The position numbers were made by a program, and so were the translations under genes. Below, one piece after another: positions 31,301-63,269 of a stretch of DNA of 64,000 nt (position 1 is the first letter of the stretch; each line of letters opens with the position of its first letter). Under the pieces are notes generated by a model. The model had not been told where the DNA came from. It saw only the letters and a list, made by a program, of their open reading frames with translations, and did not search any database. The stretch is from Alphaproteobacteria bacterium (GTDB taxonomy: Bacteria; Pseudomonadota; Alphaproteobacteria; UBA828), in NCBI GenBank assembly GCA_965214705.1, contig OZ243972.1:3456001-3520000 (forward strand), written 5' to 3'.

Positions 31301-33065
31301 AGGCGCGCGCATCGCAGTCGTCGCCGAGCGCGACCGCCGTGCGCCATGCCACCGCCGTCGGCACGATCTCGTAACCGTGCTCCTTGTGAAGGTCGGTGAT
31401 GGGCCTGAGCGTCGTGGTCTTGCCCGAGCCCGCCGCGCCCTCGATGACCGCCACGCGGCCGCCGTTGATGGTGGCGTGGTGGATGGCGAGCGACTGCTCC
31501 TGGCTCAGCGGATAGCCCTGCTCCAGCAGGGTCTTCACCTTCTCCCTGACCGCCTCTTCCGGCAGCTCGTGGCCGGCGCCGGCGGCCATGGAAGCCGCCA
31601 TGTCCTTCACCGCCTGTTCCAGCCCGAGGTTGTGGCGGGTGGAATAGACCTCGGTGTGGACCATCCCGGCCCTGGATTCGGCGGTCGGTTTCTTCGGCTC
31701 CAGCCGCTCGATCTCCGGGTTCCGCCGCAGGCGCTCGATGGCCGTCCCCACCGCCTCCCGGCCCATCAGACCCGCCGCCGCGTTCGCCGCCGCCTCCACC
31801 ATGTCCGGACGGCGGAACACCGCCTCCTCGCGTGCCAGATGGGCAGGAAGATCGTCGAGCCGGTCCGTCAGCTCACGGATTTGTTCTTGCCCGATCTTGA
31901 CCTCGTGACCGGTGACTGCGGCGATCAGCTCCTCGCGCTCGACGTAATCTTCGGCCTCGCTGCGCCAGCGCCGGTGCCTCACCTCGGGATCGTTGTCGTG
32001 CGACTTCCCTTCGCGCGTGATCTTGTTTACGCCCGCCATCCGCGAAGCGTTGCCGAGCGACGGAATCCCCAACTCTCCGGCCATGGCGACGATGGCCTTG
32101 CGCCGCTTCGACCAGAACGCTTTGAGGTCGTCCGGCATGCCGACGATGCGGGTGAACCCGTTGGCGGGGCCGTACTGCTCCATCCGCACCCCGAGGCCCT
32201 GCTGAAGCTCCCAGGCCAGGTTGGCGCGGAACAGCGCTCCGGCCGCCTTCTTCCAGCTGTAGACGGGGTACTGGTGATGCGCCCGCCACTTGCCGTCCTC
32301 GTGCGTGCGCGCGACGTTGAAGATCGTGCAGTGGACGTGAAGCTGGGGGTCGTTCTCCCGGCTGGTGCCATGGACGAAGGTGGCGGCCATCAGGTCGGCC
32401 GCGACCGGGCGCGTCACGCCCTTCTCTGCAAGCCGCGTGTAGCTGCAATACTTGAGCACGCTGTCTTCGAGCACCTCCCTGGCGGCAGCCGTCGCCATCG
32501 CCTCGATCTTCAGGCGCATCTCGGGTTCGGCGATGGCCCAGAGCGCAGACACGCTCTTGTCCACCGAGAACGTCATGTCGATGCCGGGCGAGCGCTCCGG
32601 GTTGCCGGCCCGCTGCACCAGGCCGCCCGACCCGTCAGGCTCGTAGCCGTTGTAGAGCCGCTGGAACTGGCCGGCGTCGACCTTGACGCCGTCTTCCAGC
32701 CCGAACAGGCCCCTGGGGTTGAACCAGGTGCCGTCGGGCTCCTCGCCCGCCGTATAGGGTTAAGGGTTGGGCAGGCTCTCTCTCGAGAGCCTGCCCAACC
32801 CTTTTGAACGAAGCCGCGGGCCACGAGAGGCGAAGTTGAGCTATGTGGAAAGTGCGCTGATGTCAGCGTCAGGCGGCATCCACCGGCAGCAGAGTTGCGC
32901 ATAAAATCGACGCTCGCGCCGGTCTTTCGGCAGGCATGCGGGCGCACGCTGCGAGGACTGAGCGGGGTGTGAGCCGAGGGCTGTCAGCCCGGCTCAAGCG
33001 GAGACAGGTTCGGTCGTGCGTCGGCGCTTTGGCGCCGTTGCGCGGGGCCGAAGCGAGCGGGCGTC

Positions 33066-34307
33066 TCACGGTTTCCCCCTGTGGGTCGGCGGCAGCGCCG
33101 GCGGGCCGCGCGTCGAGCGGGGCTCATGGCGGCGGCGGATTTCGCGGACGAGGCGCATGACGCCGCCGCAGTGGGGGCAGGCCACGGGCGCGGTGCCGAT
33201 CTCGGGCTCTTCGTCGGGCTCGGCCCGAGCGCCGTCCACGCTTCCCTCGGGGGCGGCGCAGCCGAGGGCGCCGAGAGCCTGGCGTGCTCTCTCCAGCGTG
33301 CTGGCGCGGCAGCCGTTGGCGAGGATGCCGAAGTAGCGAATGCGGTGCATGCCGTCCGGCAGGACGTGCCTCAGGAAGCGGCGGATGAACTCGTCGGCGC
33401 TCACGGTGGCGATGCCGTAGCGCGGCTTTCTCTGCCCCGGCGCCTTGGGCTTTCGGTGGCGGAAGGAGACCGTCTCGCCGTCGAAGGAGACGATGCGGCT
33501 GTCGGAGATGGCGATCCTGTGCGTGTAGTGCGAGAGGTACCGGAAGACCTGCTCAGGCCCGCGGAAGGGCCGCTTGGCGTAGACCACCCAGTCCCTGGCC
33601 CGGGCGGCGGCAAGCGTGGCGTGGAACTCGCCGGGATTGGCGAGGTGGGCGACGGTGCCGTGGAACTCCAGGTCCCCCCGGCCGTGGGCGCGGGCGAGCT
33701 CCTCGAGGAAGAGGCGGCGGAACAGGCTGCCGAGGACCTTGACGGGGGCGAGGAAGGTGGTGCTCCCCGTCTTCCACTCGCCACTGTCTACGTCGAAGCC
33801 CGCGTTGGGCACGACCACGTGCAGGTGCGGGTGGAAGCGGAGCTTCTGATCCCAGGTATGGAGGACCGCGGTGCCGCCGATGCGCATGCCGCCGTGGCGG
33901 GGATCGGCGGCGATGGTGCGCAGGGTCTCGGCGACGGCCCGGAAGAGGATGTCGAACACCACCCTGCGGTTGCAGAAGGCAATGGCGGCAACCTCCTTGG
34001 GCAGGGTGAAGACCACATGGAAGTAGGGCACCGGCAGGATGTCCCCGGCGCGCTCCTCGCTCCAGAGGTTGGCGGCGAGACCCTGGCAGGTGGGGCAGTG
34101 GCGGTTGCGGCAGGAGTTGAAGAGCGGATGCTCGCGCCCGCAGCCCTCGCAGGCGTACATGTGGCCGCCGAGCACGGCGGTGCGGCACGCCTCGATGGCG
34201 CCCATGACCTTGAGCCGGGCGGCGTCGATGCGCCCTTTGTGGCGCTCACGGAAAGCGGCGCCGGCGCGGCGGAAGATCTCCGCCACGCCCGCGCGTTCGG
34301 CCTCCAC
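33066..34307 (-). CDS. IS91-family (Y2 HUH) transposase
   Basis: CRT..LGG, SCRNRHCP.CQ, YFHVVFTLP, HUH motif HPHLH, YLSHY, FL.HVLP.G..RIRY.G. Confidence 0.95.
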   Translation of the reverse strand: MEAERAGVAEIFRRAGAAFRERHKGRIDAARLKVMGAIEACRTAVLGGHMYACEGCGREHPLFNSCRNRHCPTCQGLAANLWSEERAGDILPVPYFHVVFTLPKEVAAIAFCNRRVVFDILFRAVAETLRTIAADPRHGGMRIGGTAVLHTWDQKLRFHPHLHVVVPNAGFDVDSGEWKTGSTTFLAPVKVLGSLFRRLFLEELARAHGRGDLEFHGTVAHLANPGEFHATLAAARARDWVVYAKRPFRGPEQVFRYLSHYTHRIAISDSRIVSFDGETVSFRHRKPKAPGQRKPRYGIATVSADEFIRRFLRHVLPDGMHRIRYFGILANGCRASTLERARQALGALGCAAPEGSVDGARAEPDEEPEIGTAPVACPHCGGVMRLVREIRRRHEPRSTRGPPALPPTHRGKP

Positions 34308-34313
34308 GCGCCG

Positions 34314-35192
34314 TCAGTTGCGCAACGCTGCGAAGCCTGAGATCGGGTGGTCGAGGCCCTCGAACATCTTGCCGGTGACGCGGGCGTAGTGACGGGTCGT
34401 GTTCGCGCTTCGATGGCCGAGCATGTCCCGGATCACCTCGATATCGCCGCCGCGCTCGAGGAGATGGGTCGCCGCCGAATGGCGCAGGCAATGGAAGGTG
34501 TAGCTGCGGTCGAGCTCGGCAATGTCGCGCGCCCTCCTGAAGGCGGCCTGCAAGGTCTCCGTTGCGATGGGCCTGTCGAGCGAGACGCCGTAGAAGAGCC
34601 AGCTCGTCGGACGCGGCCAGATGTTCCTGTAGTAGACGCGCAAGTAGTGGATGACGATGTCCGGCAACGGTGCCATTCTCTCGGTGCCGCCTTTGCCGGA
34701 GGGGATGTGCAGCAGCTTCTTCTCCGACAGGATGTCGCCGACCTTGATGGCCAAGGTCTCGGAGATGCGGAGCCCGCCGCCATAGCCGGTGACAATGGCA
34801 GCACGGTGGCGGAGGTCGGGTGTCGCAAGGATGAGGTGCTCGACCTCCTGCTCCGACATGTAGCGCGGCAGCTTGCCGGGCTTCTTGCGGGAGCGCAGGC
34901 CGGCGACATGGTCAGGCCAGCCGAGTGTGTCGATGTAGAGGAAGTTCAGCGCGGCGAAGGAGACGTTGGTCGTGCCCGGACTGAGCCCCTTGTCGATCCG
35001 CCCCAGGTACCACTGGCGCACCTGCTCGGCGTCGAGCTCGTCCGGCGAGGCGTCGTAGTACCTGGCCAGGTTCTTGATCTCGCAGATGTAGGCCTTGGAC
35101 GTGCTCGCGGCCAGATTGGCGATGCGGAGCTGCTCCTCCATGCGCTGGCGAAGAGGGGTGACGGTGTTCGTGTCGCACGCGGTCCCGGTCAT
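34314..35192 (-). CDS. tyrosine recombinase (integron-integrase-like N-terminal domain)
   Basis: GLRISE, GKG..ER, HCLRHS.ATHLLE.G.D...I...LGH....TT..Y; complete catalytic set. Confidence 0.95.
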   Translation of the reverse strand: MTGTACDTNTVTPLRQRMEEQLRIANLAASTSKAYICEIKNLARYYDASPDELDAEQVRQWYLGRIDKGLSPGTTNVSFAALNFLYIDTLGWPDHVAGLRSRKKPGKLPRYMSEQEVEHLILATPDLRHRAAIVTGYGGGLRISETLAIKVGDILSEKKLLHIPSGKGGTERMAPLPDIVIHYLRVYYRNIWPRPTSWLFYGVSLDRPIATETLQAAFRRARDIAELDRSYTFHCLRHSAATHLLERGGDIEVIRDMLGHRSANTTRHYARVTGKMFEGLDHPISGFAALRN

Positions 35193-35686
35193 TATCGATC
35201 TCCCTGGATCGCGACGGCGCGCCGCCGGACCGATCCGGCGACGGTCCGTCGCAGGGGTCGATGCTAACCACTGGTGATCGGGAGGCTGCTGGGGATCCGC
35301 CACCCGACGGGCGGAGCGCCACTGACGCAACCGGGAAGCGAACGCACAGAACAAACGGCACCCGCGACGCCTCGGAAATGAATGAACTCTACGCCGCTAA
35401 CTCCGCGTAGCGGCTTCGTTCAATACTCGTTGGGATGCCGGAACGAGCGCTGGCTCTCCAGGTAGTACTCGGCGGACGCCATCTGGCCGATGCTGGCTAC
35501 CATGACGGGCCCGGTTCGGCGGCGGCTGGAGGAGCGGTTACGGGCATGAATGCGTCGTTCCGTGTCCCGGTCGGCGGCCGCCTCGCACGATCCGCCCGTA
35601 ACGGCTTGACCATACGGGACTTTGCACTTTCTGAGCGAGCTGTGCTGTCCATCGACTCCCGACTCTATTCTCTTGGAATGGATCCC

Positions 35687-35714
35687 GCAAGCGTAAGCTT
35701 GCACAGGTGTGCAA
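35687..35714. promoter_or_regulatory. candidate oriT-associated overlapping inverted repeats
   Basis: gcaagc-gtaa-gcttgc overlapping ttgcac-aggt-gtgcaa in the spacer between the relaxase and a divergent small gene. Confidence 0.4.
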
Positions 35715-35910
35715 CGGCTTTTTCTACGCTCTGTGGTTTCGGCAGGGGAAACTCTGTGCAAGGCAGAGGTTCCAAGGCAGGGACGGGGAGAGATCGCATC
35801 GAGTGGGGCCCCATCGCAGGGGCCGAACGGACCGTCCGTTGACACCATGGGACGGTCGGGCGATCATGCGACACACCAGATGTAGTGGTCGGAGAAGGTA
35901 AGGAGACACA

Positions 35911-36216
35911 ATGGCGGCAAGACGCTTCAACGAGACGGATATCGACTTCGATGCCATAGACGGCGACCTGGCGAAGCTGGCGCCGCCGAAGCTGAGCCTG
36001 AAGGACGTCCTGGACCGTCTGCGAGACCGCATGGTCGAGCAACGGGCCAAGGGCGTCACGGTGGCGCAGATGCACGAAGTGCTGAAAGCACGAGGCATCG
36101 AGATCGGCGAGCGAAGCCTGAAGGCGTTCCTCGACAAGGGCGAACTACCGGGACGCAAGACAGCGAAGGCTGTGGCGAATGCCGCTGGTTCGGAAGAAGG
36201 CGGCGATCCGTTCTGA
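35911..36216 (+). CDS. small helical protein, putative relaxosome accessory factor
   Basis: RBS aaggag; divergent from the relaxase; KGVTVAQMHEVLK.RGIEI...SLK HTH-like pattern. Confidence 0.6.
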   Translation: MAARRFNETDIDFDAIDGDLAKLAPPKLSLKDVLDRLRDRMVEQRAKGVTVAQMHEVLKARGIEIGERSLKAFLDKGELPGRKTAKAVANAAGSEEGGDPF

Positions 36217-37685
36217 GCGCCATGGCGCGAAGCGCCGGGCGCGACAGGGCGATATCGCTCGAAGGACGATGAGCCGTGGGCGATATTGGGAGAGGGATCG
36301 ACGTCGATGGCGCGCAAGCGCCGAGCCTGTTGCGAGGCCGTTCGGAAAGCTGCCGGCGATCGGAGCGGAGCATTTGAGCAACGGCGGCGGGAAGGCCGAA
36401 ACGTGCCGCCTCGTTCTGCAAGCGAAGCGCGCAGCGACCGAAGGTAGCGAAGGCGCCAGGGATCGTCACCCGAAGGGGTGCGCCGTTGTGGCGCGGAGAA
36501 GAAAGGAGTGTTCGAGAGAATGGAGCCTGCTGGTACGGCTCCTACTCACCCGGCTTACCGGTGTCGGAAACGACTGAAATCCCGAAAGGGGAACGGGACC
36601 AGAGCATGCCGGGAAACGGCTCGAAACCGGGCGCCGCAGCTCGGTGGAGAGCATAGAGTAAGGTGTGCATGGTGAAAGCTGTATTGCCTCAATCCCAGTT
36701 TCCAGTTGCCAAAGGGTGGGCGGTAGCGAACGCGGCTGACACGCTATCCCGCGCGAGATGGAGAGCATTGCCTTGTGCGATCCATCACCAGTTCGCGCGG
36801 AACGACCTCCGTCGGAGGATCGAGGAAACGAAGGGGCACCTAAACACACCGCAACTCCTCACACGCGTAACTACGGGATCGCCTGCAGCAGGTCCGCACG
36901 CATGCGGACCTGTATGGCGACAGAGCCGTCATAGTGTGTGCTGGGCAGCGCCCAGATCAGGTGGGTTCAAGTCCCACTGGCGCTCGGGTAAGGGGCGCCA
37001 TATCCAAAAGTGGGGGTAATTCCTCACTGGCCGGAGTGAGCCGATAAGCGAAACTCTAAACGGGCACGAAGCCGGAAACGGCGGAGACAGCCAAGGGAGG
37101 AGCTAAGTTGGTCCACTGTCGAAAGACAACCGGAAGGCAGGGTGTCCACCGCGAGGTGGAATCTGAAGGGCTTGCGGAGAAGTACCGGGCCGTAATCGAG
37201 GGGGCCACCCCATGATGAATCGGTCGGCCAAAGACGGGGCAAGGTCGAGCCGGCACTATGGCGGCGAAGGCGTTCTTACCCACCCGTCGCACCAAGGTGT
37301 TTGCGAGCGGCACGGTACGGAAGATCTGGACGTGACCCCAGGAGGGCTCGCCGCGTTCCCGGGTGGCACCGGGATAAGGTTAAGGGTTGGGCAGGCTCTC
37401 TCTCGAGAGCCTGCCCAACCCTTTTGAACGAAGCCGCGGGCCACGAGAGGCGAAGTTGAGCTATGTGGAAAGTGCGCTGATGTCAGCGTCAGGCGGCATC
37501 CACCGGCAGCAGAGTTGCGCATAAAATCGACGCTCGCGCCGGTCTTTCGGCAGGCATGCGGGCGCACGCTGCGAGGACTGAGCGGGGTGTGAGCCGAGGG
37601 CTGTCAGCCCGGCTCAAGCGGAGACAGGTTCGGTCGTGCGTCGGCGCTTTGGCGCCGTTGCGCGGGGCCGAAGCGAGCGGGCGTC

Positions 37686-38927
37686 TCACGGTTTCCCCCT
37701 GTGGGTCGGCGGCAGCGCCGGCGGGCCGCGCGTCGAGCGGGGCTCATGGCGGCGGCGGATTTCGCGGACGAGGCGCATGACGCCGCCGCAGTGGGGGCAG
37801 GCCACGGGCGCGGTGCCGATCTCGGGCTCTTCGTCGGGCTCGGCCCGAGCGCCGTCCACGCTTCCCTCGGGGGCGGCGCAGCCGAGGGCGCCGAGAGCCT
37901 GGCGTGCTCTCTCCAGCGTGCTGGCGCGGCAGCCGTTGGCGAGGATGCCGAAGTAGCGAATGCGGTGCATGCCGTCCGGCAGGACGTGCCTCAGGAAGCG
38001 GCGGATGAACTCGTCGGCGCTCACGGTGGCGATGCCGTAGCGCGGCTTTCTCTGCCCCGGCGCCTTGGGCTTTCGGTGGCGGAAGGAGACCGTCTCGCCG
38101 TCGAAGGAGACGATGCGGCTGTCGGAGATGGCGATCCTGTGCGTGTAGTGCGAGAGGTACCGGAAGACCTGCTCAGGCCCGCGGAAGGGCCGCTTGGCGT
38201 AGACCACCCAGTCCCTGGCCCGGGCGGCGGCAAGCGTGGCGTGGAACTCGCCGGGATTGGCGAGGTGGGCGACGGTGCCGTGGAACTCCAGGTCCCCCCG
38301 GCCGTGGGCGCGGGCGAGCTCCTCGAGGAAGAGGCGGCGGAACAGGCTGCCGAGGACCTTGACGGGGGCGAGGAAGGTGGTGCTCCCCGTCTTCCACTCG
38401 CCACTGTCTACGTCGAAGCCCGCGTTGGGCACGACCACGTGCAGGTGCGGGTGGAAGCGGAGCTTCTGATCCCAGGTATGGAGGACCGCGGTGCCGCCGA
38501 TGCGCATGCCGCCGTGGCGGGGATCGGCGGCGATGGTGCGCAGGGTCTCGGCGACGGCCCGGAAGAGGATGTCGAACACCACCCTGCGGTTGCAGAAGGC
38601 AATGGCGGCAACCTCCTTGGGCAGGGTGAAGACCACATGGAAGTAGGGCACCGGCAGGATGTCCCCGGCGCGCTCCTCGCTCCAGAGGTTGGCGGCGAGA
38701 CCCTGGCAGGTGGGGCAGTGGCGGTTGCGGCAGGAGTTGAAGAGCGGATGCTCGCGCCCGCAGCCCTCGCAGGCGTACATGTGGCCGCCGAGCACGGCGG
38801 TGCGGCACGCCTCGATGGCGCCCATGACCTTGAGCCGGGCGGCGTCGATGCGCCCTTTGTGGCGCTCACGGAAAGCGGCGCCGGCGCGGCGGAAGATCTC
38901 CGCCACGCCCGCGCGTTCGGCCTCCAC
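37686..38927 (-). CDS. IS91-family (Y2 HUH) transposase
   Basis: Same protein as 33066-34307. Confidence 0.95.
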   Translation of the reverse strand: MEAERAGVAEIFRRAGAAFRERHKGRIDAARLKVMGAIEACRTAVLGGHMYACEGCGREHPLFNSCRNRHCPTCQGLAANLWSEERAGDILPVPYFHVVFTLPKEVAAIAFCNRRVVFDILFRAVAETLRTIAADPRHGGMRIGGTAVLHTWDQKLRFHPHLHVVVPNAGFDVDSGEWKTGSTTFLAPVKVLGSLFRRLFLEELARAHGRGDLEFHGTVAHLANPGEFHATLAAARARDWVVYAKRPFRGPEQVFRYLSHYTHRIAISDSRIVSFDGETVSFRHRKPKAPGQRKPRYGIATVSADEFIRRFLRHVLPDGMHRIRYFGILANGCRASTLERARQALGALGCAAPEGSVDGARAEPDEEPEIGTAPVACPHCGGVMRLVREIRRRHEPRSTRGPPALPPTHRGKP

Positions 38928-38933
38928 GCGCCG

Positions 38934-39812
38934 TCAGTTGCGCAACGCTGCGAAGCCTGAGATCGGGTGGTCGAGGCCCTCGAACATCTTGCCGGTGACG
39001 CGGGCGTAGTGACGGGTCGTGTTCGCGCTTCGATGGCCGAGCATGTCCCGGATCACCTCGATATCGCCGCCGCGCTCGAGGAGATGGGTCGCCGCCGAAT
39101 GGCGCAGGCAATGGAAGGTGTAGCTGCGGTCGAGCTCGGCAATGTCGCGCGCCCTCCTGAAGGCGGCCTGCAAGGTCTCCGTTGCGATGGGCCTGTCGAG
39201 CGAGACGCCGTAGAAGAGCCAGCTCGTCGGACGCGGCCAGATGTTCCTGTAGTAGACGCGCAAGTAGTGGATGACGATGTCCGGCAACGGTGCCATTCTC
39301 TCGGTGCCGCCTTTGCCGGAGGGGATGTGCAGCAGCTTCTTCTCCGACAGGATGTCGCCGACCTTGATGGCCAAGGTCTCGGAGATGCGGAGCCCGCCGC
39401 CATAGCCGGTGACAATGGCAGCACGGTGGCGGAGGTCGGGTGTCGCAAGGATGAGGTGCTCGACCTCCTGCTCCGACATGTAGCGCGGCAGCTTGCCGGG
39501 CTTCTTGCGGGAGCGCAGGCCGGCGACATGGTCAGGCCAGCCGAGTGTGTCGATGTAGAGGAAGTTCAGCGCGGCGAAGGAGACGTTGGTCGTGCCCGGA
39601 CTGAGCCCCTTGTCGATCCGCCCCAGGTACCACTGGCGCACCTGCTCGGCGTCGAGCTCGTCCGGCGAGGCGTCGTAGTACCTGGCCAGGTTCTTGATCT
39701 CGCAGATGTAGGCCTTGGACGTGCTCGCGGCCAGATTGGCGATGCGGAGCTGCTCCTCCATGCGCTGGCGAAGAGGGGTGACGGTGTTCGTGTCGCACGC
39801 GGTCCCGGTCAT
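38934..39812 (-). CDS. tyrosine recombinase
   Basis: Same protein as 34314-35192. Confidence 0.95.
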   Translation of the reverse strand: MTGTACDTNTVTPLRQRMEEQLRIANLAASTSKAYICEIKNLARYYDASPDELDAEQVRQWYLGRIDKGLSPGTTNVSFAALNFLYIDTLGWPDHVAGLRSRKKPGKLPRYMSEQEVEHLILATPDLRHRAAIVTGYGGGLRISETLAIKVGDILSEKKLLHIPSGKGGTERMAPLPDIVIHYLRVYYRNIWPRPTSWLFYGVSLDRPIATETLQAAFRRARDIAELDRSYTFHCLRHSAATHLLERGGDIEVIRDMLGHRSANTTRHYARVTGKMFEGLDHPISGFAALRN

Positions 39813-40220
39813 TATCGATCTCCCTGGATCGCGACGGCGCGCCGCCGGACCGATCCGGCGACGGTCCGTCGCAGGGGTCGATACTAACCACTGGTGATCG
39901 GGAGGCTGCTGGGGATCCGCCACCCGACGGGCGGAGCGCCACTGACGCAACCGGGAAGCGAACGCACAGAACAAACGGCACCCGCGACGCCTCGGAAATG
40001 AATGAACTCTACGCCGCTAACTCCGCGTAGCGGCTTCGTTCAACGGACCCTATAAGCCGAAAGGCGAAATGGGAAAGGATGCGCGGCGAGCAATCGGATA
40101 ACCGAATAGTACCTGAAGCCCGGCGAAAGCCGGGTGACCGCGCGAGCGGCGGCCGTGTGGGCCGGGGAAGGCGGTTGGCAGAGGTGGTCGGCGAGAGACA
40201 GCGATGAGTGAGTAAGGACC

Positions 40221-41531
40221 ATGACGCGGACAAGTTCCTTGAGCGAAAGACCCGGACATCATGGCCCGAGGAGACTCATCGACTGGATCAACCCGGCGGG
40301 TGACAGGAAGGTCCACTCACTGGTGGACAAGGTGTACAAGCGGAAGAACCTTGAGGTGGCCTGGGAAAAGGTGAAGCGCAACCGGGGTGCCGGTGGCGTG
40401 GACGGAGAGGATTTAGCGGCGTTCGAGGCATCGCTGGATGCAAATCTCGATCGCCTGCACCGGGAGTTGCGGGACGGTGAGTATCACCCGCAGCCGGTTC
40501 TCCAATGCCTGATCCCCAAGGCGGGCCAGCCGGGGAAGTTCCGCCCGCTCGGCATCCCGACAATCTACGACCGGGTGTGCCAGCAGGCGCTGCTGAACCG
40601 GCTGGAACCGATCTTCGAGCCGGTGTTCGACGATGCCAACTACGGGTACCGGCAAGGAAGGTCTGCCCATGGAGCGTTACGCAAGATATGGAGGGAACTG
40701 GACGAGGGCAACGAGTGGGTTCTCGATGCGGATTTGAAAGACTTTTTCGGGTCCGTGGACCACGAAAAGCTCCTCGAACTCGTCAACCAGCGAGTCTCGG
40801 ATGGCCGGGTATTAGGTCTGCTCAGGCAGATGCTCACGGCCGGGGTGGTGGCCGACGGTAAGAGGCTGCCGACCGAACAGGGCACTCCGCAGGGCGGCAT
40901 CGTTTCACCGCTGCTCAGCAATATCTTGCTGACCCCGTTCGATTGGGAAATGCGTCGTCGCGGCTATCGACTAACGCGATACGCCGATGATTGGCTGATC
41001 ACGTGCCGCACACGCGGGGAAGCCCGCGCAGCACTGGAGACGGCCAGGCGGATTCTGGCAAAGCTGGGTGTGTCCCTCAACGCCGGGAAGACCCGCATTG
41101 TCCATGTCAGGCACGGGTTTGAGTTCCTCGGCTACAAGATCAAGCAGGGCGAGCGGCCTCTCCGGCTGTCGTCCTCCAAGATCAAGAGCGGGGTTCGCGG
41201 GGGAGCGCGCTACGCGGTTCCGCGTGAGAAATCCATCCGGCACTTCAAGGACCAGATTCGCCAGCGTACCCGGCGCAAGGCTCCTGTCAGCACGCAGGAG
41301 CTGATTGACGAGATCAACCCGATCATTCGGGGATGGGGCCAATACTATTGCAAGGCCCACGTCCGCGGGCTCTTCCACCAGCTTGACGGCTGGATCGTGC
41401 GGCGGCTCTGGTCGCATCGTCGCAAGCGCTGGCGCAACGCTGGCTGGAAACAGTTGCCGGAGCGCAAGCTGATCGACGAATACGGGCTTGTTCGCCTGAT
41501 CTCACTGGTTCCGTCCTTGAACCTTCGTTGA
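40221..41531 (+). CDS. ltrA: group II intron reverse transcriptase/maturase without endonuclease domain
   Basis: GAGGVDG, RPLGIPTIYDR, GTPQGG..SPLL.NI, YADD, FLGY, GW..YY; stop just before domain V. Confidence 0.95.
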   Translation: MTRTSSLSERPGHHGPRRLIDWINPAGDRKVHSLVDKVYKRKNLEVAWEKVKRNRGAGGVDGEDLAAFEASLDANLDRLHRELRDGEYHPQPVLQCLIPKAGQPGKFRPLGIPTIYDRVCQQALLNRLEPIFEPVFDDANYGYRQGRSAHGALRKIWRELDEGNEWVLDADLKDFFGSVDHEKLLELVNQRVSDGRVLGLLRQMLTAGVVADGKRLPTEQGTPQGGIVSPLLSNILLTPFDWEMRRRGYRLTRYADDWLITCRTRGEARAALETARRILAKLGVSLNAGKTRIVHVRHGFEFLGYKIKQGERPLRLSSSKIKSGVRGGARYAVPREKSIRHFKDQIRQRTRRKAPVSTQELIDEINPIIRGWGQYYCKAHVRGLFHQLDGWIVRRLWSHRRKRWRNAGWKQLPERKLIDEYGLVRLISLVPSLNLR

Positions 41532-41807
41532 GACACCTTTGTGAAAGCGGCTTACGGGAAAACCGTACGGGCCGTTTGAGCGGCGGACGGAGGCTAGCCT
41601 CGCGGGGCGCCTCCTCCGACCCGACACCCAAATGCCCGGCGTAATGGCCGGGACAGCCGCCGGGGACGTCGGCCCCAGGCGGACGACCATGCGTATAAGG
41701 CCGGGCGACCGGACCGAAAGCGCCTCTGGTCGGGGGAAGGACGATGCCGCCAATAACGGCATTTGCAGTATGTGTAGAAGAGATTCTTCGACGGAAAGGC
41801 GCTGCTG

Positions 41808-43673: not shown

Positions 43674-44131
43674 AAGGTGCATGCACGGTTCGGAGGGAGG
43701 CGCAGGAGTATCCTCTTTGGAGGTGCTCCGCGCCTACCCTATCGAAGACCGCGAAGCGGGCTTCGTGGAGCCGGGCGGGGCGAAGCCGCGCCCGGCGGAA
43801 TAGCGCCCGGCGACCGGTCCGAAGGACCGGGCGGGCGCCCTTACCTTTCTGCCGGACAGGCCGGCGATATCGAGTCGCCAACGATCCGGCACGGGAGCAG
43901 GCAACGCGCCCGAAGGGGCGAGGAGTCGTCGAGCAAGGCACCGGAGGATCGCTTGTTGGCGGCGTTCGATGCGATGTCGGAAGGAGGGAGGCCCGGGTGG
44001 GTGGCGCGAAGCGGGACACTGGGAACGTTGCAAAAAAGGCCGACCCGCGGCGATGCCGGGATCGGCCCCTGGTGTGTCGTGGGGAAGGTTGGCTGCTCCC
44101 GGCGGCCGCGAGGCCGCTGGAAGGCGGGCGA

Positions 44132-47357: not shown

Positions 47358-47688
47358 TTATGTGCAGTTGAACATAATGAATTGGCCTGTATCGGTCGTG
47401 CGCAGCAGGACCGATACAGGCATTGAGCTGAGCCGCGCTGCACGGCCGTAGTGCCGGGCTATGGGGAAAGTAACCGCTGGGTGGGAGCCGATTAGGCCGA
47501 AGCGGTGCAACCTGTTGGTGTCGCTGGCGGCGCCGGCACTCTGAATCTCCACTTATCAGGTTGCGACGCGGCTGTGCAGGGGCTCGCGACGATGTTTCGC
47601 CGCCGGGCAGCACGAAGCGGGCGCAGGAGCGGTCGCGGCGCGGCGGCCGGGGGGACTGTTGTCGGACCTTGTCGGTTCTGACGCATCG

Positions 47689-48909
47689 TCACGGCGGTCG
47701 GGTATTCGTCGCCCGCATGGCTGCTTGGGGCTGCGGCTCAAGAATGACGGTTTGCCGCAGCGTTGCCTCGCCGCACTGGCGGCACACGGTGATGTCGATC
47801 CCCGTCAGTCGCAGCATCATCTGCTGCGTCGTTTCCGGCTCCCGCGGTTCAGGGGCAGGCTGGCCGAGCAGGTCTCGGCAGCGGGCGAGCTTGCGAGCCC
47901 GGCAGCGATTGGCGAGCAAGCCGTAGTGGCGCAGGCGGGTGAAGCCGCGCGGGAGGACGTGCAGGAGGAAGCGGCGGATGAACTCGTCGACGTCGAGACG
48001 CATCACCTTGACCTTGTTGCCGTCAGCGTAGTCGCGCCAACGGAAGCGAACGTGCTCGCCGTCGAAGTCGACGAGGCGATGATTGGCGATGGCAGCCTTG
48101 TGGGTGTAGCGCCCGAGATAGGCCAGAACGTGCCCGGCGCCGGCGAACGGGGCCTTGGTGTAGACCACCCAGTCGTTCGACCGCAGCGCGGTCTTCAGAC
48201 ACTCGAACTCGCGGCTGTCGTCACCACCGCCGACGACCTTGAGCCGGAGTTCGCCGTCGCGGTGCGCGGCGCCGAGGAAGTCGAGATACTTGCCGCGGAA
48301 GACCTTCGAGAGCGCGACCGTGGGGAACAGGAAGCCCTTGCGCGCGGGAGTGAGCCAGCGCTCTCTGTCCGGGCTCAGACCGCCGTCGGTGACGATACAG
48401 TGGACATGGATGTGCTGTCCCAGATTCTGCCCCCAAGTGTGCAGCACCATGGTGATGCCGAGCTCGCCGCCGAGCCAGCGGGGATTGCGGCCGAACTCGA
48501 GCAGGGTCTGGGAGGCGGCCTTGAAGAGCAGCCTGTAGATGAGCGCGGCATTGCCCTGGGCCACGGGGTTGAGCTCGTGGGGCAGGGTGAACACGACATG
48601 CCAGTAGTCGATGTCGAGCAGATCGGCGCACTGACGCTCAACCCACCTGGTCTGCGAGAGGGTCTGGCACTTGGGGCAATGACGGTTCCGGCACGAGGCG
48701 TACTGGATCGTCACCGCCCCGCAGTGATCGCATTCTGCCTTGAACCCGCCGAGCACAGCGGTGCGGCAGTTCACCAGCGCGTCGACGACCCTCTGCTGCT
48801 GGGCCGAGAGCAGATGTGTCTCGCCATAGGCGTCGCCGCGCTCGCGCAGGATGTCCGCGACCTCCAGCGCCGGCCGTGTGGCTGGCGCCGCGTGGCCGAC
48901 ATGAGCCAC
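47689..48909 (-). CDS. IS91-family (Y2 HUH) transposase
   Basis: SCRNRHCPKCQ, HVVFTLP, HIHVH, YLGRY, HVLP.GF.RLRHYG. Confidence 0.95.
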   Translation of the reverse strand: MAHVGHAAPATRPALEVADILRERGDAYGETHLLSAQQQRVVDALVNCRTAVLGGFKAECDHCGAVTIQYASCRNRHCPKCQTLSQTRWVERQCADLLDIDYWHVVFTLPHELNPVAQGNAALIYRLLFKAASQTLLEFGRNPRWLGGELGITMVLHTWGQNLGQHIHVHCIVTDGGLSPDRERWLTPARKGFLFPTVALSKVFRGKYLDFLGAAHRDGELRLKVVGGGDDSREFECLKTALRSNDWVVYTKAPFAGAGHVLAYLGRYTHKAAIANHRLVDFDGEHVRFRWRDYADGNKVKVMRLDVDEFIRRFLLHVLPRGFTRLRHYGLLANRCRARKLARCRDLLGQPAPEPREPETTQQMMLRLTGIDITVCRQCGEATLRQTVILEPQPQAAMRATNTRPP

Positions 48910-48912
48910 CGG

Positions 48913-49767
48913 TCAGGCCTGGGCAGGACGCGGAAACTCCAGCAGGTCCAGGGGCGACGGCGTGGCGGACGTCTTGTCGTGAGCAAGGTGAAGGTAGCGC
49001 ATGGTCGAGCGGATTGAGGTGTGCCCGAGGCGGCGTTGGATGACATGCAGCTCGACGCCGGCCTCGAGGAGCCCGGTGGCGTAGCAATGGCGCAGCGTGT
49101 GGATCCCGCCGGGCTTGGCGATCCCGGCTTTGTCCTTGGCTCGATCGTAAACGTGTGCTGGCCCATGGCGCGTCATCGGCCGGCCGGGAATCCGACCGGG
49201 GAACAGCCAGTGCTCGGGCCGTACCCGCTGCCAGTACTCGCGCAGCTCGTCGAGCAGCCGGGGCGAGAGCGGGACGTAGCGGTCCTTGTTGCCCTTGCCC
49301 TGATCGACGCGCAGGCACATCCGCTGTGAGTCGATATCGCTGATCTGCAACCGGCCGAGCTCGCTCGCCCGAAGCCCCGCTGCATAGGCCGTCATCAGCA
49401 AGGCGCGGTGCTTGCGGTTGATGGTGACGCTGAACAGCCGCACCAGTTCGTCTTGGTTGAGCAGTACGGGCAGGGTGGAAGGCGTCTTGGCGAAGGGCAG
49501 ATAGAAGTGCGGCTCGGGCAAGCCCAGCGTGATGCGATAGAGGAAGCGGATCCCTTGGCGAGCGCTGTTGCAGCTCTGCCAAGCCAGCCCCCGCTCTTCG
49601 TGAAGAAAGATGAGGTACTCCTGGACTTCCTCCGCTGAGATGTGCTCGGGGCTGCGACCGTAGTGAACCGCGAGCCCGGAGACCGAGTTGAGGTAGGACT
49701 TCCTGGTGTTCTCGGCGAAGCCGCGAACCGTCATGTCGTTGATCATGCGCTGGCGAAGTGCCGTCAT
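48913..49767 (-). CDS. tyrosine recombinase
   Basis: GLRASE, GKG.KDR, HTLRH.YAT.LLE.G, LGH.SI.ST..Y. Confidence 0.95.
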   Translation of the reverse strand: MTALRQRMINDMTVRGFAENTRKSYLNSVSGLAVHYGRSPEHISAEEVQEYLIFLHEERGLAWQSCNSARQGIRFLYRITLGLPEPHFYLPFAKTPSTLPVLLNQDELVRLFSVTINRKHRALLMTAYAAGLRASELGRLQISDIDSQRMCLRVDQGKGNKDRYVPLSPRLLDELREYWQRVRPEHWLFPGRIPGRPMTRHGPAHVYDRAKDKAGIAKPGGIHTLRHCYATGLLEAGVELHVIQRRLGHTSIRSTMRYLHLAHDKTSATPSPLDLLEFPRPAQA

Positions 49768-49987
49768 GGGGCGTCTCCCTCTGGGTTTGGTCTGTCACGA
49801 AGACACGCCCATGCTCTTGCTCGCCGGCTTGGCGGTCGACGACCATCGATCAACGAGGGAGAAACAGGATTCGACCCTGCGCCCAGACGCTGGAGCGAAC
49901 GGCCACACTCAACTTACGCGCGGCAAGGAGATCACTCTGGGCACCCGGCGGCCGAGGCGCCCCGCCGCGGAACGCGGCTCAGTTCAA

Positions 49988-50037
49988 GGTTAAGGGTTGG
50001 GCAGGCTCTCGAGAGAGAGCCTGCCCAACCCTTAACC
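49988..50037. repeat. solo, fully symmetric copy of the element A terminal hairpin
   Basis: ggttaagggttgggcaggctctc-gaga-gagagcctgcccaacccttaacc, without element A genes. Confidence 0.9.
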
Positions 50038-57317: not shown

Positions 57318-57323
57318 CGCTTC

Positions 57324-58227: not shown

Positions 58228-58249
58228 GCCATCCGCCTAGGCGGATGGC
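58228..58249. other. perfect 22-bp palindrome after the three-gene operon
   Basis: gccatccgcctaggcggatggc; no U-tract. Confidence 0.6.
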
Positions 58250-58276
58250 GGTTCCCCCTGGGAAGATGGGGGCCCC

Positions 58277-58643
58277 ATGGCGATCACCAGGCAGCAAGTT
58301 GTCGAGGCGCTCGAAGAAGGAATTGGAGCGGCGAATAGAAGGTACGAAGCTTGGACCAACGGATCCTGGGTCCGGGCCGCCGAACGGCCTGTCGTCGCGC
58401 ACAAGCACATACGTTCTCGCGATCGACGACTTCGAGCGTCTGACGAACGCTGCGGCGAACGAGCAGATTGAGCTGCCTGCATTCTTGGCTTCGTGTGTTG
58501 GTGGTGATGAGGGGCCGGAGACGGCGCTGCACCTGTTTGAGCAGCATCTGAACAGACGACAGATACCCCTGCGGTTTTCCCGGACAGTCGAACAGGCTGT
58601 AGAAGCCAGCTTGGCAAGGCTGGAAGAAGGGCTGAGTGGTTGA
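58277..58643 (+). pseudogene. fused or frameshifted gene fragments
   Basis: MAITRQQVVEALEEG..WTNGSW in one frame; YVLAIDDFERL..LEEGLSG in another. Confidence 0.4.
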
Positions 58644-59005
58644 AGCAGATGCATGGCGGCGGGGTGCGCGCGGCGCTGAACCGTGCCGGGTTCTTCTCAC
58701 TCGGACAGATTTCCAGGGGTGCAGTCTTTGCCTGGTCTAATGAACGACGTGGACTGGTCTGCCCCGAAAGCGCTTTGAACGAAGCCGCTACGCGGAGTTA
58801 GCGGCGTAGAGTTCATTCATTTCCGAGGCGTCGCGGGTGCCGTTTGTTCTGTGCGTTCGCTTCCCGGTTGCGTCAGTGGCGCTCCGCCCGTCGGGTGGCG
58901 GATCCCCAGCAGCCTCCCGATCACCAGTGGTTAGTATCGACCCCTGCGACGGACCGTCGCCGGATCGGTCCGGCGGCGCGCCGTCGCGATCCAGGGAGAT
59001 CGATA

Positions 59006-59884
59006 ATGACCGGGACCGCGTGCGACACGAACACCGTCACCCCTCTTCGCCAGCGCATGGAGGAGCAGCTCCGCATCGCCAATCTGGCCGCGAGCACGTC
59101 CAAGGCCTACATCTGCGAGATCAAGAACCTGGCCAGGTACTACGACGCCTCGCCGGACGAGCTCGACGCCGAGCAGGTGCGCCAGTGGTACCTGGGGCGG
59201 ATCGACAAGGGGCTCAGTCCGGGCACGACCAACGTCTCCTTCGCCGCGCTGAACTTCCTCTACATCGACACACTCGGCTGGCCTGACCATGTCGCCGGCC
59301 TGCGCTCCCGCAAGAAGCCCGGCAAGCTGCCGCGCTACATGTCGGAGCAGGAGGTCGAGCACCTCATCCTTGCGACACCCGACCTCCGCCACCGTGCTGC
59401 CATTGTCACCGGCTATGGCGGCGGGCTCCGCATCTCCGAGACCTTGGCCATCAAGGTCGGCGACATCCTGTCGGAGAAGAAGCTGCTGCACATCCCCTCC
59501 GGCAAAGGCGGCACCGAGAGAATGGCACCGTTGCCGGACATCGTCATCCACTACTTGCGCGTCTACTACAGGAACATCTGGCCGCGTCCGACGAGCTGGC
59601 TCTTCTACGGCGTCTCGCTCGACAGGCCCATCGCAACGGAGACCTTGCAGGCCGCCTTCAGGAGGGCGCGCGACATTGCCGAGCTCGACCGCAGCTACAC
59701 CTTCCATTGCCTGCGCCATTCGGCGGCGACCCATCTCCTCGAGCGCGGCGGCGATATCGAGGTGATCCGGGACATGCTCGGCCATCGAAGCGCGAACACG
59801 ACCCGTCACTACGCCCGCGTCACCGGCAAGATGTTCGAGGGCCTCGACCACCCGATCTCAGGCTTCGCAGCGTTGCGCAACTGA
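59006..59884 (+). CDS. tyrosine recombinase
   Basis: Same protein as in copies 1 and 2. Confidence 0.95.
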   Translation: MTGTACDTNTVTPLRQRMEEQLRIANLAASTSKAYICEIKNLARYYDASPDELDAEQVRQWYLGRIDKGLSPGTTNVSFAALNFLYIDTLGWPDHVAGLRSRKKPGKLPRYMSEQEVEHLILATPDLRHRAAIVTGYGGGLRISETLAIKVGDILSEKKLLHIPSGKGGTERMAPLPDIVIHYLRVYYRNIWPRPTSWLFYGVSLDRPIATETLQAAFRRARDIAELDRSYTFHCLRHSAATHLLERGGDIEVIRDMLGHRSANTTRHYARVTGKMFEGLDHPISGFAALRN

Positions 59885-60187
59885 CGGCGCGTGGAGGCCG
59901 AACGCGCGGGCGTGGCGGAGATCTTCCGCCGCGCCGGCGCCGCTTTCCGTGAGCGCCACAAAGGGCGCATCGACGCCGCCCGGCTCAAGGTCATGGGCGC
60001 CATCGAGGCGTGCCGCACCGCCGTGCTCGGCGGCCACATGTACGCCTGCGAGGGCTGCGGGCGCGAGCATCCGCTCTTCAGATACCATGAGCACGGTGGC
60101 ACCGAATCGATTCTGGCGGTTAGACAAGCTCGGAGAGAAGGCCAGCACCTTCTCTCCGAGCGGAATCGTCAACAACGGAGTGGACGG

Positions 60188-61384
60188 ATGTCGGATGGTC
60201 CAGACACGACCGCGCTGACAGGCGCAAGTAGTAGCACGATTTATGTCGCGGTGGAGATCAGCCTCAAATCGTGGATCGTTGGCGTGCATTGCCCGGATGC
60301 CTCGGGTGGCAGCATCAGCATCCACACACTGGCTGCTGCCGACACGGCGGGACTGTTGGATCTCGTCGGGTCGGTGCGGGAACGGGTGGCGAGGGAGCTC
60401 GGCGCCCGTCCTCGGGTGATGCTGACCTACGAGGCGGGCTACGAGGGGTTCTGGCTTGCCCGCGATATCGAGCGCCGTGACGCGGAGATCGATATCTTCA
60501 TGAACGATCCGGCGAGCCTGCGGGTGAACCGGCGCGCCAAGAAGAAAAAGACCGACCGTATCGACGCGAGGAGGATGGTTCGGGCTCTGAAGGCATGGGA
60601 CCAAGGCGATTCGGAGGCCATGTCCTGGGTGCGCGTGCCCGATGTGGACCAGGAGGATGCCAAGCGCCTGCTGCGCGAGAGGGACACGCTGATCAGCGAG
60701 CGTACCCGCGTCAACAACCGGATCAAAGGGCTCTTGCAGTTGCACGGCATCTTCGATCTGGCGCCGCGCAAGCCGGACTTCCTCGAACGCCTCGCGACCG
60801 CGCGGACGGGCTATGGGGCGCCGTTGCCGCCGCGTGCGCGGGCAGAGATTGAGAGGGCGGTGGGGATGCTTCGCCTGGTTGAGGAGCATATCGAGATGAT
60901 CGAGGCCGAGAAGAGGGCCCTGCTGAAGGCTGGCCGGAAAGCCCAGGACGCGACCAATCGTGACGGGACGGCGATGATCGCGGCGCTTACGCGCATCCAT
61001 GGCATCGGCCTCAATGACGCCACACTGCTGGCTGGCGAGGTGTTCTATCGGGACTTCCGCAATCGCCGGGAGTTGGGCAGCTGGGCCGGGTTGACGTCGG
61101 TGCCGTGGGCGAGCGGAGATGTCGACCACGATCTTGGCATCAGCAAGGCCGGCCCCTCGCATGTCAGGAAGCACATGATCCAGATGGCTTGGCGCTGGCT
61201 GAAGCTGCAACCGGAAAGCGCGATCACGAAGTGGTTCCACGCCTACGTCGCCAGGGATGCCGGTGGCGGGAGGGACCGGCGAGCGAGGAAGCGGGCGATC
61301 GTGGGGGTCGCGCGCAAGCTGCTGATCGCGCTGTGGCGCTATGCCACCCAAGGACTGGTGCCTGAGGGCGCCATCGTCTCCTGA
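60188..61384 (+). CDS. IS110-family recombinase
   Basis: YVAVEIS, YEAG..GFW, KTDRIDA, IHGIG, F.NRR.LG..AGL...P..SG, ISKAG, AIV.VARKL. Confidence 0.92.
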   Translation: MSDGPDTTALTGASSSTIYVAVEISLKSWIVGVHCPDASGGSISIHTLAAADTAGLLDLVGSVRERVARELGARPRVMLTYEAGYEGFWLARDIERRDAEIDIFMNDPASLRVNRRAKKKKTDRIDARRMVRALKAWDQGDSEAMSWVRVPDVDQEDAKRLLRERDTLISERTRVNNRIKGLLQLHGIFDLAPRKPDFLERLATARTGYGAPLPPRARAEIERAVGMLRLVEEHIEMIEAEKRALLKAGRKAQDATNRDGTAMIAALTRIHGIGLNDATLLAGEVFYRDFRNRRELGSWAGLTSVPWASGDVDHDLGISKAGPSHVRKHMIQMAWRWLKLQPESAITKWFHAYVARDAGGGRDRRARKRAIVGVARKLLIALWRYATQGLVPEGAIVS

Positions 61385-61720
61385 GGGCACCGGCCGAACG
61401 AACGGGAAAATACAGGAGGTTCCGACGTGGTCGGACGCGGCCGCGGAGGATGCCGGGCAAGGCGTGTGACCGGGCAAGAGTTGGGTCGCCGCTTGGCACC
61501 GTTCTACAGATGGGTCCCGCCTCCCGGAACGTCACCACCGCTTGGATGCGGTATTGGGGTCACGGAGCCGGCAAGCGCCGGAGTTCCGAACCGGATAAGA
61601 GCTGAGCAGCGTGGCGGATCGCTGCGTGGAAACGACGTTCTGCCTGGACATCGGCCGCGGATTCGAGTGGAGAGATTGCGAATGCCATTGACGTAGATGA
61701 AGCCGGGCCTTGCGGAGAGA
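61385..61720 (+). ncRNA. candidate bridge/seek RNA region
   Basis: Non-coding 3' arm of an IS1111-type element with short matches to the donor junction and target. Confidence 0.5.
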
Positions 61721-63269
61721 GCTCATAAGAACTCCTGCCGCAACCGCCACTGCCCCACCTGCCAGGGTCTCGCCGCCAACCTCTGGAGCGAGGAGCGCGC
61801 CGGGGACATCCTGCCGGTGCCCTACTTCCATGTGGTCTTCACCCTGCCCAAGGAGGTTGCCGCCATTGCCTTCTGCAACCGCAGGGTGGTGTTCGACATC
61901 CTCTTCCGGGCCGTCGCCGAGACCCTGCGCACCATCGCCGCCGATCCCCGCCACGGCGGCATGCGCATCGGCGGCACCGCGGTCCTCCATACCTGGGATC
62001 AGAAGCTCCGCTTCCACCCGCACCTGCACGTGGTCGTGCCCAACGCGGGCTTCGACGTAGACAGTGGCGAGTGGAAGACGGGGAGCACCACCTTCCTCGC
62101 CCCCGTCAAGGTCCTCGGCAGCCTGTTCCGCCGCCTCTTCCTCGAGGAGCTCGCCCGCGCCCACGGCCGGGGGGACCTGGAGTTCCACGGCACCCTCGCC
62201 CACCTCGCCAATCCCGGCGAGTTCCACGCCACGCTTGCCGCCGCCCGGGCCAGGGACTGGGTGGTCTACGCCAAGCGGCCCTTCCGCGGGCCTGAGCAGG
62301 TCTTCCGGTACCTCTCGCACTACACGCACAGGATCGCCATCTCCGACAGCCGCATCGTCTCCTTCGACGGCGAGACGGTCTCCTTCCGCCACCGAAAGCC
62401 CAAGGCGCCGGGGCAGAGAAAGCCGCGCTACGGCATCGCCACCGTGAGCGCCGACGAGTTCATCCGCCGCTTCCTGAGGCACGTCCTGCCGGACGGCATG
62501 CACCGCATTCGCTACTTCGGCATCCTCGCCAACGGCTGCCGCGCCAGCACGCTGGAGAGAGCACGCCAGGCTCTCGGCGCCCTCGGCTGCGCCGCCCCCG
62601 AGGGAAGCGTGGACGGCGCTCGGGCCGAGCCCGACGAAGAGCCCGAGATCGGCACCGCGCCCGTGGCCTGCCCCCACTGCGGCGGCGTCATGCGCCTCGT
62701 CCGCGAAATCCGCCGCCGCCATGAGCCCCGCTCGACGCGCGGCCCGCCGGCGCTGCCGCCGACCCACAGGGGGAAACCGTGAGACGCCCGCTCGCTTCGG
62801 CCCCGCGCAACGGCGCCAAAGCGCCGACGCACGACCGAACCTGTCTCCGCTTGAGCCGGGCTGACAGCCCTCGGCTCACACCCCGCTCAGTCCTCGCAGC
62901 GTGCGCCCGCATGCCTGCCGAAAGACCGGCGCGAGCGTCGATTTTATGCGCAACTCTGCTGCCGGTGGATGCCGCCTGACGCTGACATCAGCGCACTTTC
63001 CACATAGCTCAACTTCGCCTCTCGTGGCCCGCGGCTTCGTTCAAAAGGGTTGGGCAGGCTCTCGAGAGAGAGCCTGCCCAACCCTTAACCTTGGCAAACG
63101 TGTGCCCAGAAGCTCTTCCCTCCAGTGGAAAGCCGGGCGACTCGACAAGGATTCATCGATCCACCTCGTCCGATCCATCGCAGCAGATAGGAATTCTGGC
63201 TTGCCGACGGCGGTATATGGTATAGGCAAGCAACCGGAGCGCCACGCTAGGCGAAAGGGAGGCACAACG

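Follow-up and report, generated by a model that had tools for sequence, protein, structure and literature searches.

We find that a 64,000-nt stretch of DNA from an Alphaproteobacteria bacterium (assembly GCA_965214705.1, contig OZ243972.1, forward-strand positions 3,456,001 to 3,520,000; hereafter the window, from whose first letter coordinates are counted unless stated otherwise) carries two elements, A and B, whose genes and ends identify them almost certainly as intact IS91-family rolling-circle insertion sequences (IS) with a Xer/IntI-like tyrosine recombinase, here called the integrase, encoded upstream of the Y2 transposase gene. Integrase-carrying IS91 elements are a known kind, of which A is a new member; the new observations are that the target of A is dyad-symmetric and that an inverted repeat of the element lies across the joint of its predicted circle. 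We tentatively propose that the Y2 enzyme makes a single-strand circle that the integrase then inserts. A preliminary description of the window had announced recently active integrase and Y2-transposase elements of the IS91 kind with unlike ends, and the protein domains and the census of copies bear this out.

Element A is present in the window as two intact copies, A1 (32758..35423, plus strand, 2,666 bp) and A2 (37378..40043, plus strand, 2,666 bp), in both of which the integrase gene comes first and the Y2 gene follows 6 bp downstream, with both genes on the minus strand. In A1, the Y2 HUH transposase (33066..34307, minus strand, 413 aa) matches the Pfam families Zn_Tnp_IS91 and Y2_Tnp (3.3e-54 and 4.3e-30) and scores 382 bits against the IS91-family transposase equivalog NF033538 of NCBIfam, for a cut-off of 125. 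It has HxH at residue 159, YxxxY at residue 257 and three CxxC motifs, so that its catalytic motifs are intact; the motif names given for IS91 in supplement 5 of PMC13181058 are HIH and YFGSY. The integrase (34314..35192, minus strand) is 292 aa long from its ATG, with its frame open back to a TTG at 35354, and consists of a SAM-like N-terminal domain and a catalytic domain (Phage_integrase, 6.7e-33). The integrase of B shares R142, K167, H234, R237, H260 and Y269 with that of A. No Pfam family matches the plus-strand open reading frames (ORFs) of A.

None of the models for XerA, XerC and integron integrases is matched by the integrase above its cut-off. The nearest solved structures are XerA (4a8e), XerD (1a0p) and IntI4 (2a3v), and the integron-integrase model TIGR02249 gives 129 bits for A and 158 bits for B, for a cut-off of 265. 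Because that model is matched in two stretches, as is IntI4, the integrase lacks the IntI-specific insertion in the catalytic domain. This agrees with an analysis in which, in the part of the source available, the recombinases of IS91 elements group with IntI in an integron-like subgroup that is without the IntI insertion (10.1101/542381).

The two ends of A differ in kind. The ori-type end of A1 (32758..32803, plus strand), downstream of the Y2 gene, consists of a 4-nt GGTT overhang (32758-32761) and a hairpin (32762-32803) whose 19-nt arms (32762-32780 and 32785-32803) are 100% complementary around a 4-nt loop; this region folds at -27.6 kcal/mol, with a z-score of -6.7 versus shuffles. Immediately inside the hairpin lies the inner copy of a 14-nt inverted repeat (TTGAACGAAGCCGC; 32804..32817, plus strand). 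The ter-type end (35393..35423, plus strand), upstream of the integrase gene, consists of a small hairpin, GCCGCTA-N8-TAGCGGC (35393-35414), followed by 9 nt ending in GTTCAA, and the last 14 nt of A1 (35410..35423) are the outer copy of the repeat, which inverts the sequence of 32804-32817 without a mismatch. The plus strand of A1 therefore reads 5'-GGTTAAGG...GTTCAA-3' and, by analogy with IS91, would be the transferred ('bottom') strand in A1 and A2. These coordinates uphold the earlier report of a 14-bp repeat at one end and a 19-bp-stem hairpin outside the repeat at the other; the bases CTAT, TTAT and TTGG that it read after the hairpin end are, on the other strand, the flanks ATAG, ATAA and CCAA that precede GGTTAAGG in the three window copies. 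Rfam has nothing at the element ends. When GTTCAA is joined to GGTT, as predicted for a circle, the two repeat copies pair with each other, and the joint folds into a 33-bp stem (-46 kcal/mol, z-score -9.9) from which GGTT is bulged out exactly at the joint.

Element B (47373..49987, plus strand; 5' boundary uncertain by a few bases, with a BLAST common start at 47371) has the same layout in a different sequence, as had been claimed for it. Its Y2 gene (48909..47689, minus strand) and integrase gene (49767..48913, minus strand) lie between hairpin arms at 47385-47397 and 47409-47421 with an inner repeat at 47423-47436 and an outer repeat at 49974-49987. The 14-nt repeat covaries between A and B, and B, like A' and A'', two relatives 80% identical to A in the same genome, keeps the layout with compensatory changes. 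The hairpin end of B is usually preceded by a 16-nt palindrome of the type ATGT-N8-ACAT (47360-47375 in the window, and at other B copies), which is found in both orientations and covaries with the first bases of B (ACG...CGT versus ATG...CAT); three variants of it that were searched for have only 10 exact matches in the genome, nearly all at B ends. Abutting the GTTCAA end of B is a solo 50-bp perfect palindrome (49988..50037), an A-type hairpin with both GGTT and AACC, whose far-side flank fits the target consensus of A on the other strand (CCGCTCAA^). Template switching could have produced this palindrome, as could slippage or recombination involving the hairpins of two A copies in inverted orientation.

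We counted A across the assembly (7.92 Mb in three contigs, C1 to C3) and find 90 ends of each type, hairpin and GTTCAA, at an identity of at least 95%, with 66 full-length copies and 55 partial pieces. Both ORFs are intact in 58 of 58 gap-free copies, which come from 63 full-length matches; 55 of these copies differ from the consensus at 0-6 sites and the other three at 39-55 sites. Every non-fragment Y2 gene in the genome adjoins an integrase gene. These sequences point to a very recent amplification of A in this genome, where repeats of at least 300 bp and at least 90% identity make up 20%, 37% and 21% of the three contigs. A-like copies (66% identity or more) were not found in 18 of 20 congeners searched, and the remaining two have one or two diverged copies each (66-69% integrase identity). 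Across the class, 16 of 301 genomes have an IS91-family transposase and none shows a burst. The burst of A documents a strong lineage-specific IS expansion, with no counterpart in the congeners searched. With repeats masked, about half of the 90 copies have the plus strand of A on the strand that is locally richer in G (44 in windows of ±20 kb, 47 for ±50 kb and 48 for ±100 kb), which is no bias in a test of low power, the cumulative GC skew being weak and irregular.

Within the window, a self-comparison gives 2 differences between A1 and A2 over 2,670 aligned bases. The preliminary description had counted three 2,666-bp copies with two differences, which holds for A1 and A2; the third, A3, is inverted, running from its hairpin end at 63090 down to its GTTCAA end at 58775, and is split at element position 1361 into minus-strand pieces at 61730..63090 (element positions 1-1361) and 58775..60080 (positions 1361-2666), so that only A1 and A2 are whole. 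The split is made by a 1,649-bp IS110-family element inside the Y2 gene (60081..61729; domains DEDD_Tnp_IS110 and Transposase_20). This element occupies the identical position in 10 A copies genome-wide, and position 1361 also holds a 4,409-bp insert in three copies and a 1,813-bp insert in one; the IS110-family insertions there are a case of site-specific parasitism of one IS by another. A1, for its part, disrupts a member of a gene family (28860-35848) that has at least six diverged paralogs in the genome, with 77-85% identity near the insertion point.

The hairpin loop is flipped (GAGA for TCTC) in 6 of the 58 gap-free copies. Flipped-loop copies lie at 325847, 1688104, 1790072 and 465112 of C1, at 493364 and 497998 of C2 and at 1787619 of C3, the last in a copy that has an indel and stands outside the 58. 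One flipped-loop copy belongs to an older lineage of ~98% identity, and therefore either the flip recurred or flipped copies still move.

The many near-identical insertions define the target. After correction of 8 IS-disrupted flanks, 88 distinct flanks are available at the hairpin end and 89 at the other end. On the hairpin side, the target has C at -7 (51 of 88), G at -6 (65), C at -3 (45), A at -2 (85) and A at -1 (72); on the far side, G or A occupies +1 in 72 of 89 and C in only 3, and T is found at +7 and at +8 in 43 of 89 each, in a genome with 17% T. A thus inserts after AA, with a left-flank consensus CGNNCAA^ that copies A's own end, CGTTCAA^; a target resembling the element's own ter end follows IS91-family logic. 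The absence of a fixed target in the earlier description reflects the fact that only three copies were at hand, and a logo built from all copies replaces it with the rule above. One head-to-tail (tandem) A dimer with a tandem joint occurs in the genome, and A lies directly after B at two loci, because A's own end and B's end are good targets.

That insertion duplicates no target bases, as had been stated, is confirmed by six paralogous empty sites that are contiguous across 32757|35424 and by an uninterrupted B that is contiguous across another A insertion. Nor do we find read-through of the ter end, as expected from one-ended transposition, in any of the 89 distinct ter-side flanks (95% upper bound ~3.3%); the sole ter-side flank that is shared belongs to a segmental duplicate. 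One-ended transposition is a frequent, not a defining, trait of the IS91 family. Odd flanks ending in GGAAGTTCG were considered as co-mobilised DNA and rejected as such, since they are explained by another IS inserted into the terminal GGTTAA of A (8 flanks). An IS of ~2,091 bp with a 5-bp NTTAA duplication has 16 copies, 8 of them inside the terminal GGTTAA of an A copy (one at C1:3002173-3004268).

The right flank mirrors the left, with T7, T8, G9, C12 and G13 matching C-7, G-6, C-3, A-2 and A-1 in reverse complement, so that the full target reads CGNNCAA^N6TTGNNCG and is dyad-symmetric over ~20 bp. A weight matrix built from 86 left flanks and scored on the reverse complement of 88 right flanks gives a sharp maximum at a 6-bp spacer (mean -1.40 versus a genome null of -6.57, Mann-Whitney p 2.4e-22), with 40% of sites scoring above 0. 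Scores at spacers of 0-3 and 8-12 are at background (-6.2 to -7.9), a same-orientation control is flat, and the dyad is unchanged after removal of paralogous flanks (84 and 87 sites, p 5.9e-22).

Hairpin-forming targets were considered and rejected. Reconstituted 60-nt targets fold at -7.75 kcal/mol versus -10.28 kcal/mol for random genome 60-mers, and are less GC-rich (61.5%) than these. There is no covariation of base pairs across the target, with -4/+10 complementary in 13 of 52 sites versus 13.6 expected and -5/+11 in 14 of 52 versus 14.4; the conserved pairs are slightly anti-correlated within sites. Because the variable positions do not covary, the target is a pair of independent inverted half-sites and not a hairpin, which points to a dimeric protein bound to duplex DNA.

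Xer-type core sites consist of two inverted half-sites separated by 6-8 bp and are cut at the boundary of half-site and spacer; in dif, the arms end in AA and TT around 6 bp. The target of A has this core geometry, with inverted half-sites, a 6-bp spacer and the crossover at the half-site/spacer boundary, and its half-sites copy the inner 7 nt of A's 14-nt repeat. At the donor joint of A, A', A'' and B, a second TTGRRC word starts at +10; in A this word is TTGGGC, and it lies 9 nt away as duplex, or at a distance of 5 bp plus a 4-nt bulge when the joint is folded.

Because a duplex joint suits a tyrosine recombinase, and because the target is a dyad, we lean towards a relay of the two enzymes. 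In this scheme, Y2 would nick the plus strand of A1 or A2 between the flank ending in AA and GGTT at the hairpin (ori) end, replication would displace this strand as far as GTTCAA (ter), and Y2 would close it into a single-strand circle, by analogy with experiments on IS91. The 14-nt repeats of the circle would then pair across the joint into the 33-bp stem with its GGTT bulge, which would make the joint duplex. Integrase protomers may bind both the pseudo-core target CGNNCAA^N6TTGNNCG and the folded joint and exchange one strand at CAA^, with replication completing the insertion; the enzyme that cuts the target would then be the integrase, and a one-strand exchange would leave no target bases duplicated. 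Duplex DNA is a poor substrate for a single-strand HUH nuclease and a natural one for a tyrosine recombinase, and recombination of a folded single strand with a duplex site is known from IntI at attC x attI and from XerC on CTX-phi.

Several points weigh against this proposal. By precedent a second enzyme is not needed, as IS91 TnpA alone inserts circles according to the available part of PMC13181058. The left half-site includes GTTCA, which is common to the ter end of an integrase-less element of Escherichia coli plasmids and may be read by Y2. A second half-site at a distance of 6 bp is missing from the donor joint, whose TTGGGC stands at +10, and the geometry of the bulge varies (4/0 nt in A, 12/1 in B and 7/6 in a Bryobacterales relative). 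Four copies of this Bryobacterales relative show no clear 6-bp dyad, a number too small to judge. Dimeric HUH Rep proteins that bind inverted repeats exist, and a dyad does not prove a tyrosine recombinase. Two enzymes of opposite chemistry would, moreover, need the same phosphodiester. Finally, no circle joint is seen in public data, of which only assembled contigs are kept for the 21 runs listed; for the four runs compared, no back-joint 35423->32758 is listed. The earlier idea that the integrase acts at the folded joint is thus strengthened indirectly, by the dyad with its 6-bp pseudo-core and by the absence of the repeat from one integrase-less element, and is set back by the IS91 precedent, which does not require an integrase.

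Nearly as probable is an alternative in which A transposes as a canonical IS91 element: Y2 alone would cut and join the DNA at ori and ter as well as at the target, perhaps as a duplex-bound dimer, and the integrase would be an accessory in the position of orf121. As such, the integrase might help termination at ter, act as a repressor of transposition, or serve to resolve tandem products or multimers. In IS91, as the available text of PMC13181058 describes it, TnpA alone suffices to insert bottom-strand single-strand circles, and orf121, which lies upstream of and is coupled to tnpA, inhibits transposition and sharpens cleavage at terIS; the same text gives IS801 and IS1294 as cases in which the left half of the target copies the ter end, as it does in A. 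The intact catalytic motifs of the Y2 protein, the very precise termination seen in 0 of 89 ter flanks with read-through, and the GTTCA shared with an integrase-less element all fit this alternative, which nevertheless leaves several features of A awkward. The integrase keeps all of its catalytic residues across phyla, beyond what a mere DNA binder needs, and the 14-nt repeat would bury the joint in duplex, which is odd for a single-strand nuclease. A mirrored half-site at exactly 6 bp with the cut at its edge fits the core of a tyrosine recombinase, and the tandem dimer persists unresolved.

It is improbable that the integrase both excises and integrates the element (end x end, then joint x target), like a small integrative element, with Y2 only replicating the excised circle. 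Arm-like sequences are kept on both sides of CAA^ and the chemistry is reversible in principle, but ~90 near-identical copies point to copy-out rather than cut-out, and an ori hairpin with a ter hairpin plus ~9 nt is the end architecture of an HUH element. The only empty-site joints in contigs, 32757->35424 in 4 of 4 public runs (short sides of 21-27 nt), are explained by paralogs. Least likely of all is that the hairpin, ~260 nt downstream of the Y2 stop codon, is a transcription terminator of that gene and the repeat a chance match or relic, as no T-run follows the hairpin on the sense strand, all 90 copies have the hairpin precisely at the element boundary, and relatives have hairpins of unrelated sequence at the same place, with compensatory changes in A' and A''.

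The preliminary description had also likened the ends to integron attC sites. In attC, RYYYAAC is the 5' word and GTTRRRY the 3' word, and strands cross over at G^TT (AA^C). GTTGGGC and GCCCAAC are literally present in the hairpin of A, but in the opposite order, with GTTGGGC in the 5' arm and GCCCAAC in the 3' arm. The crossover is AA^R, with C at +1 in only 3 of 89 sites, and the integrase lacks the IntI insertion; an attC reading of the ends is accordingly rejected.

Relatives of A and B were collected as 80 loci fetched with the two integrases, from Acidobacteriota, Alpha-, Beta- and Gammaproteobacteria, Spirochaetia, Planctomycetota and others. A Y2 gene lies directly downstream of the integrase gene in 70 of the 80 loci, and the integrase keeps all catalytic residues across phyla. 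Annotations by the Prokaryotic Genome Annotation Pipeline (PGAP) on Mesorhizobium and Myroides plasmids pair a 'tyrosine-type recombinase/integrase' with an 'IS91 family transposase' in the same order and with the same spacing, in line with the preliminary statement that IS91-like elements with an upstream tyrosine recombinase exist. PLSDB contains no close DNA relative of A, the best match covering 17% of the element at 74% identity. Integrase matches number 3-8 per genome in five of the genomes from which these loci come.

An exact-match search for terminal repeats missed many imperfect ones and was replaced by a motif search and a scan for repeats matching at 12 of 13 positions. By motif, 30 of the 70 loci have TGAAC-TAAACCGC at one or both ends; upstream of the integrase gene, the motif is followed by a tiny hairpin, and where the other end is found, the inverse motif lies downstream of the Y2 gene and is followed by a long hairpin of unrelated sequence. 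The looser scan finds a 12-of-13 repeat in 20 of 39 loci with enough flank, some of these by chance, and 12 of the 20 also have a strongly folding stretch right after the repeat. In one Bryobacterales metagenome-assembled genome (G041:C4:89256-92738), an integrase gene occurs twice in identical form on one strand, at a distance of 2,640 bp, so that a related element probably forms a head-to-tail pair in this other phylum.

For contrast, we compared three copies of the integrase-less IS91-family element of E. coli plasmids, whose Y2 protein is 27% identical to that of A. It has GTTCA at its ter end, as A does. The only repeat seen, of 10 bp, is internal; none at the ends includes the cut, and neither end folds into a strong hairpin. 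On this small sample, the combination of repeat and hairpin appears to track the integrase. Classical terminal repeats are likewise absent from the IS91 family as characterised in the available part of PMC13181058. A 50-kb stretch of a Piscirickettsia plasmid contains only fragmentary IS91-type genes among many other IS.

These comparisons place A relative to known systems. With IS91, IS801, IS1294 and IS1294b it shares a Y2 transposase with a zinc-binding domain, the absence of a target duplication, unlike ori and ter ends, and a target motif beside ori that resembles the ter motif. As laid out in the accessible portion of PMC13181058, oriIS lies downstream of tnpA with one or two subterminal palindromes, terIS lies upstream with one palindrome beside the cut, and the family makes no duplication and targets, beside oriIS, a motif like the one cleaved at ter. 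A differs from IS91 in its extra tyrosine recombinase gene, in having the 14 nt of its ter end repeated perfectly, in inverse orientation, just inside a very strong hairpin at the other end, in a cut after CAA and not after a full CTTG/GTTC tetranucleotide, and in a target that is dyad-symmetric over ~20 bp, with no one-ended transposition among 89 ter flanks; its Y2 protein is only 23-27% identical to those of E. coli IS91 members.

Integrase-carrying IS91 members in ISfinder and TnPedia include ISAzo26, ISMno23, ISSod25, ISWz1, ISShvi3 and ISSde12, and in this subgroup, as in A, the integrase gene immediately precedes the Y2 gene in the same orientation. The literature searched describes neither the ends nor the target of such elements, nor what their integrase does. 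The orf121 gene of IS91 has a similar place, directly upstream of and coupled to the transposase gene on the ter side; unlike the integrase of A, Orf121 is 121 aa long and is given no enzymatic function in the available text of PMC13181058. With IntI/attC and XerCD/CTX-phi attP(+), A has in common that the recombinase is a simple Xer/IntI-like enzyme, that the donor may be a folded single strand whose crossover point carries extrahelical bases, and that crossover of one strand leaves no duplication; its target resembles dif in having inverted half-sites whose inner edges, on either side of a 6-bp spacer, read AA...TT. Unlike integrons, A has no integron platform, has its crossover at AA^R and not AA^C, and has no IntI insertion; unlike in the IntI and CTX-phi systems, its donor would come from an HUH enzyme and not from recombination or a phage.

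If the two enzymes do act in relay, this would be a mechanism not yet described, in which HUH copy-out would be followed by one-strand exchange of a folded circle into degenerate dif-like duplex sites; the element would be a hybrid of IS91 with either an integron cassette or an integrating element of the CTX type. Whichever enzyme cuts the target, the genome offers a natural experiment of ~90 near-identical insertions with a base-precise target logo and a dyad pointing to a dimeric duplex-binding protein. The role of an integrase in a rolling-circle transposon thereby becomes a bench question with defined substrates, namely the 14-nt repeat, the folded joint and the 20-bp target, and it concerns elements annotated in many phyla.

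The window has two further features. Directly after A2 is group II intron material (40221-43742), with a reverse transcriptase and maturase ORF at 40221-41531 and an intron domain V/VI at 43656-43742 that is the only Rfam match (group II intron) in the window. A 980-bp inverted repeat of 85% identity has its arms at 25030-26004 and 45478-46452, the latter within an ORF that carries a YspA/SLOG (YAcAr) domain.

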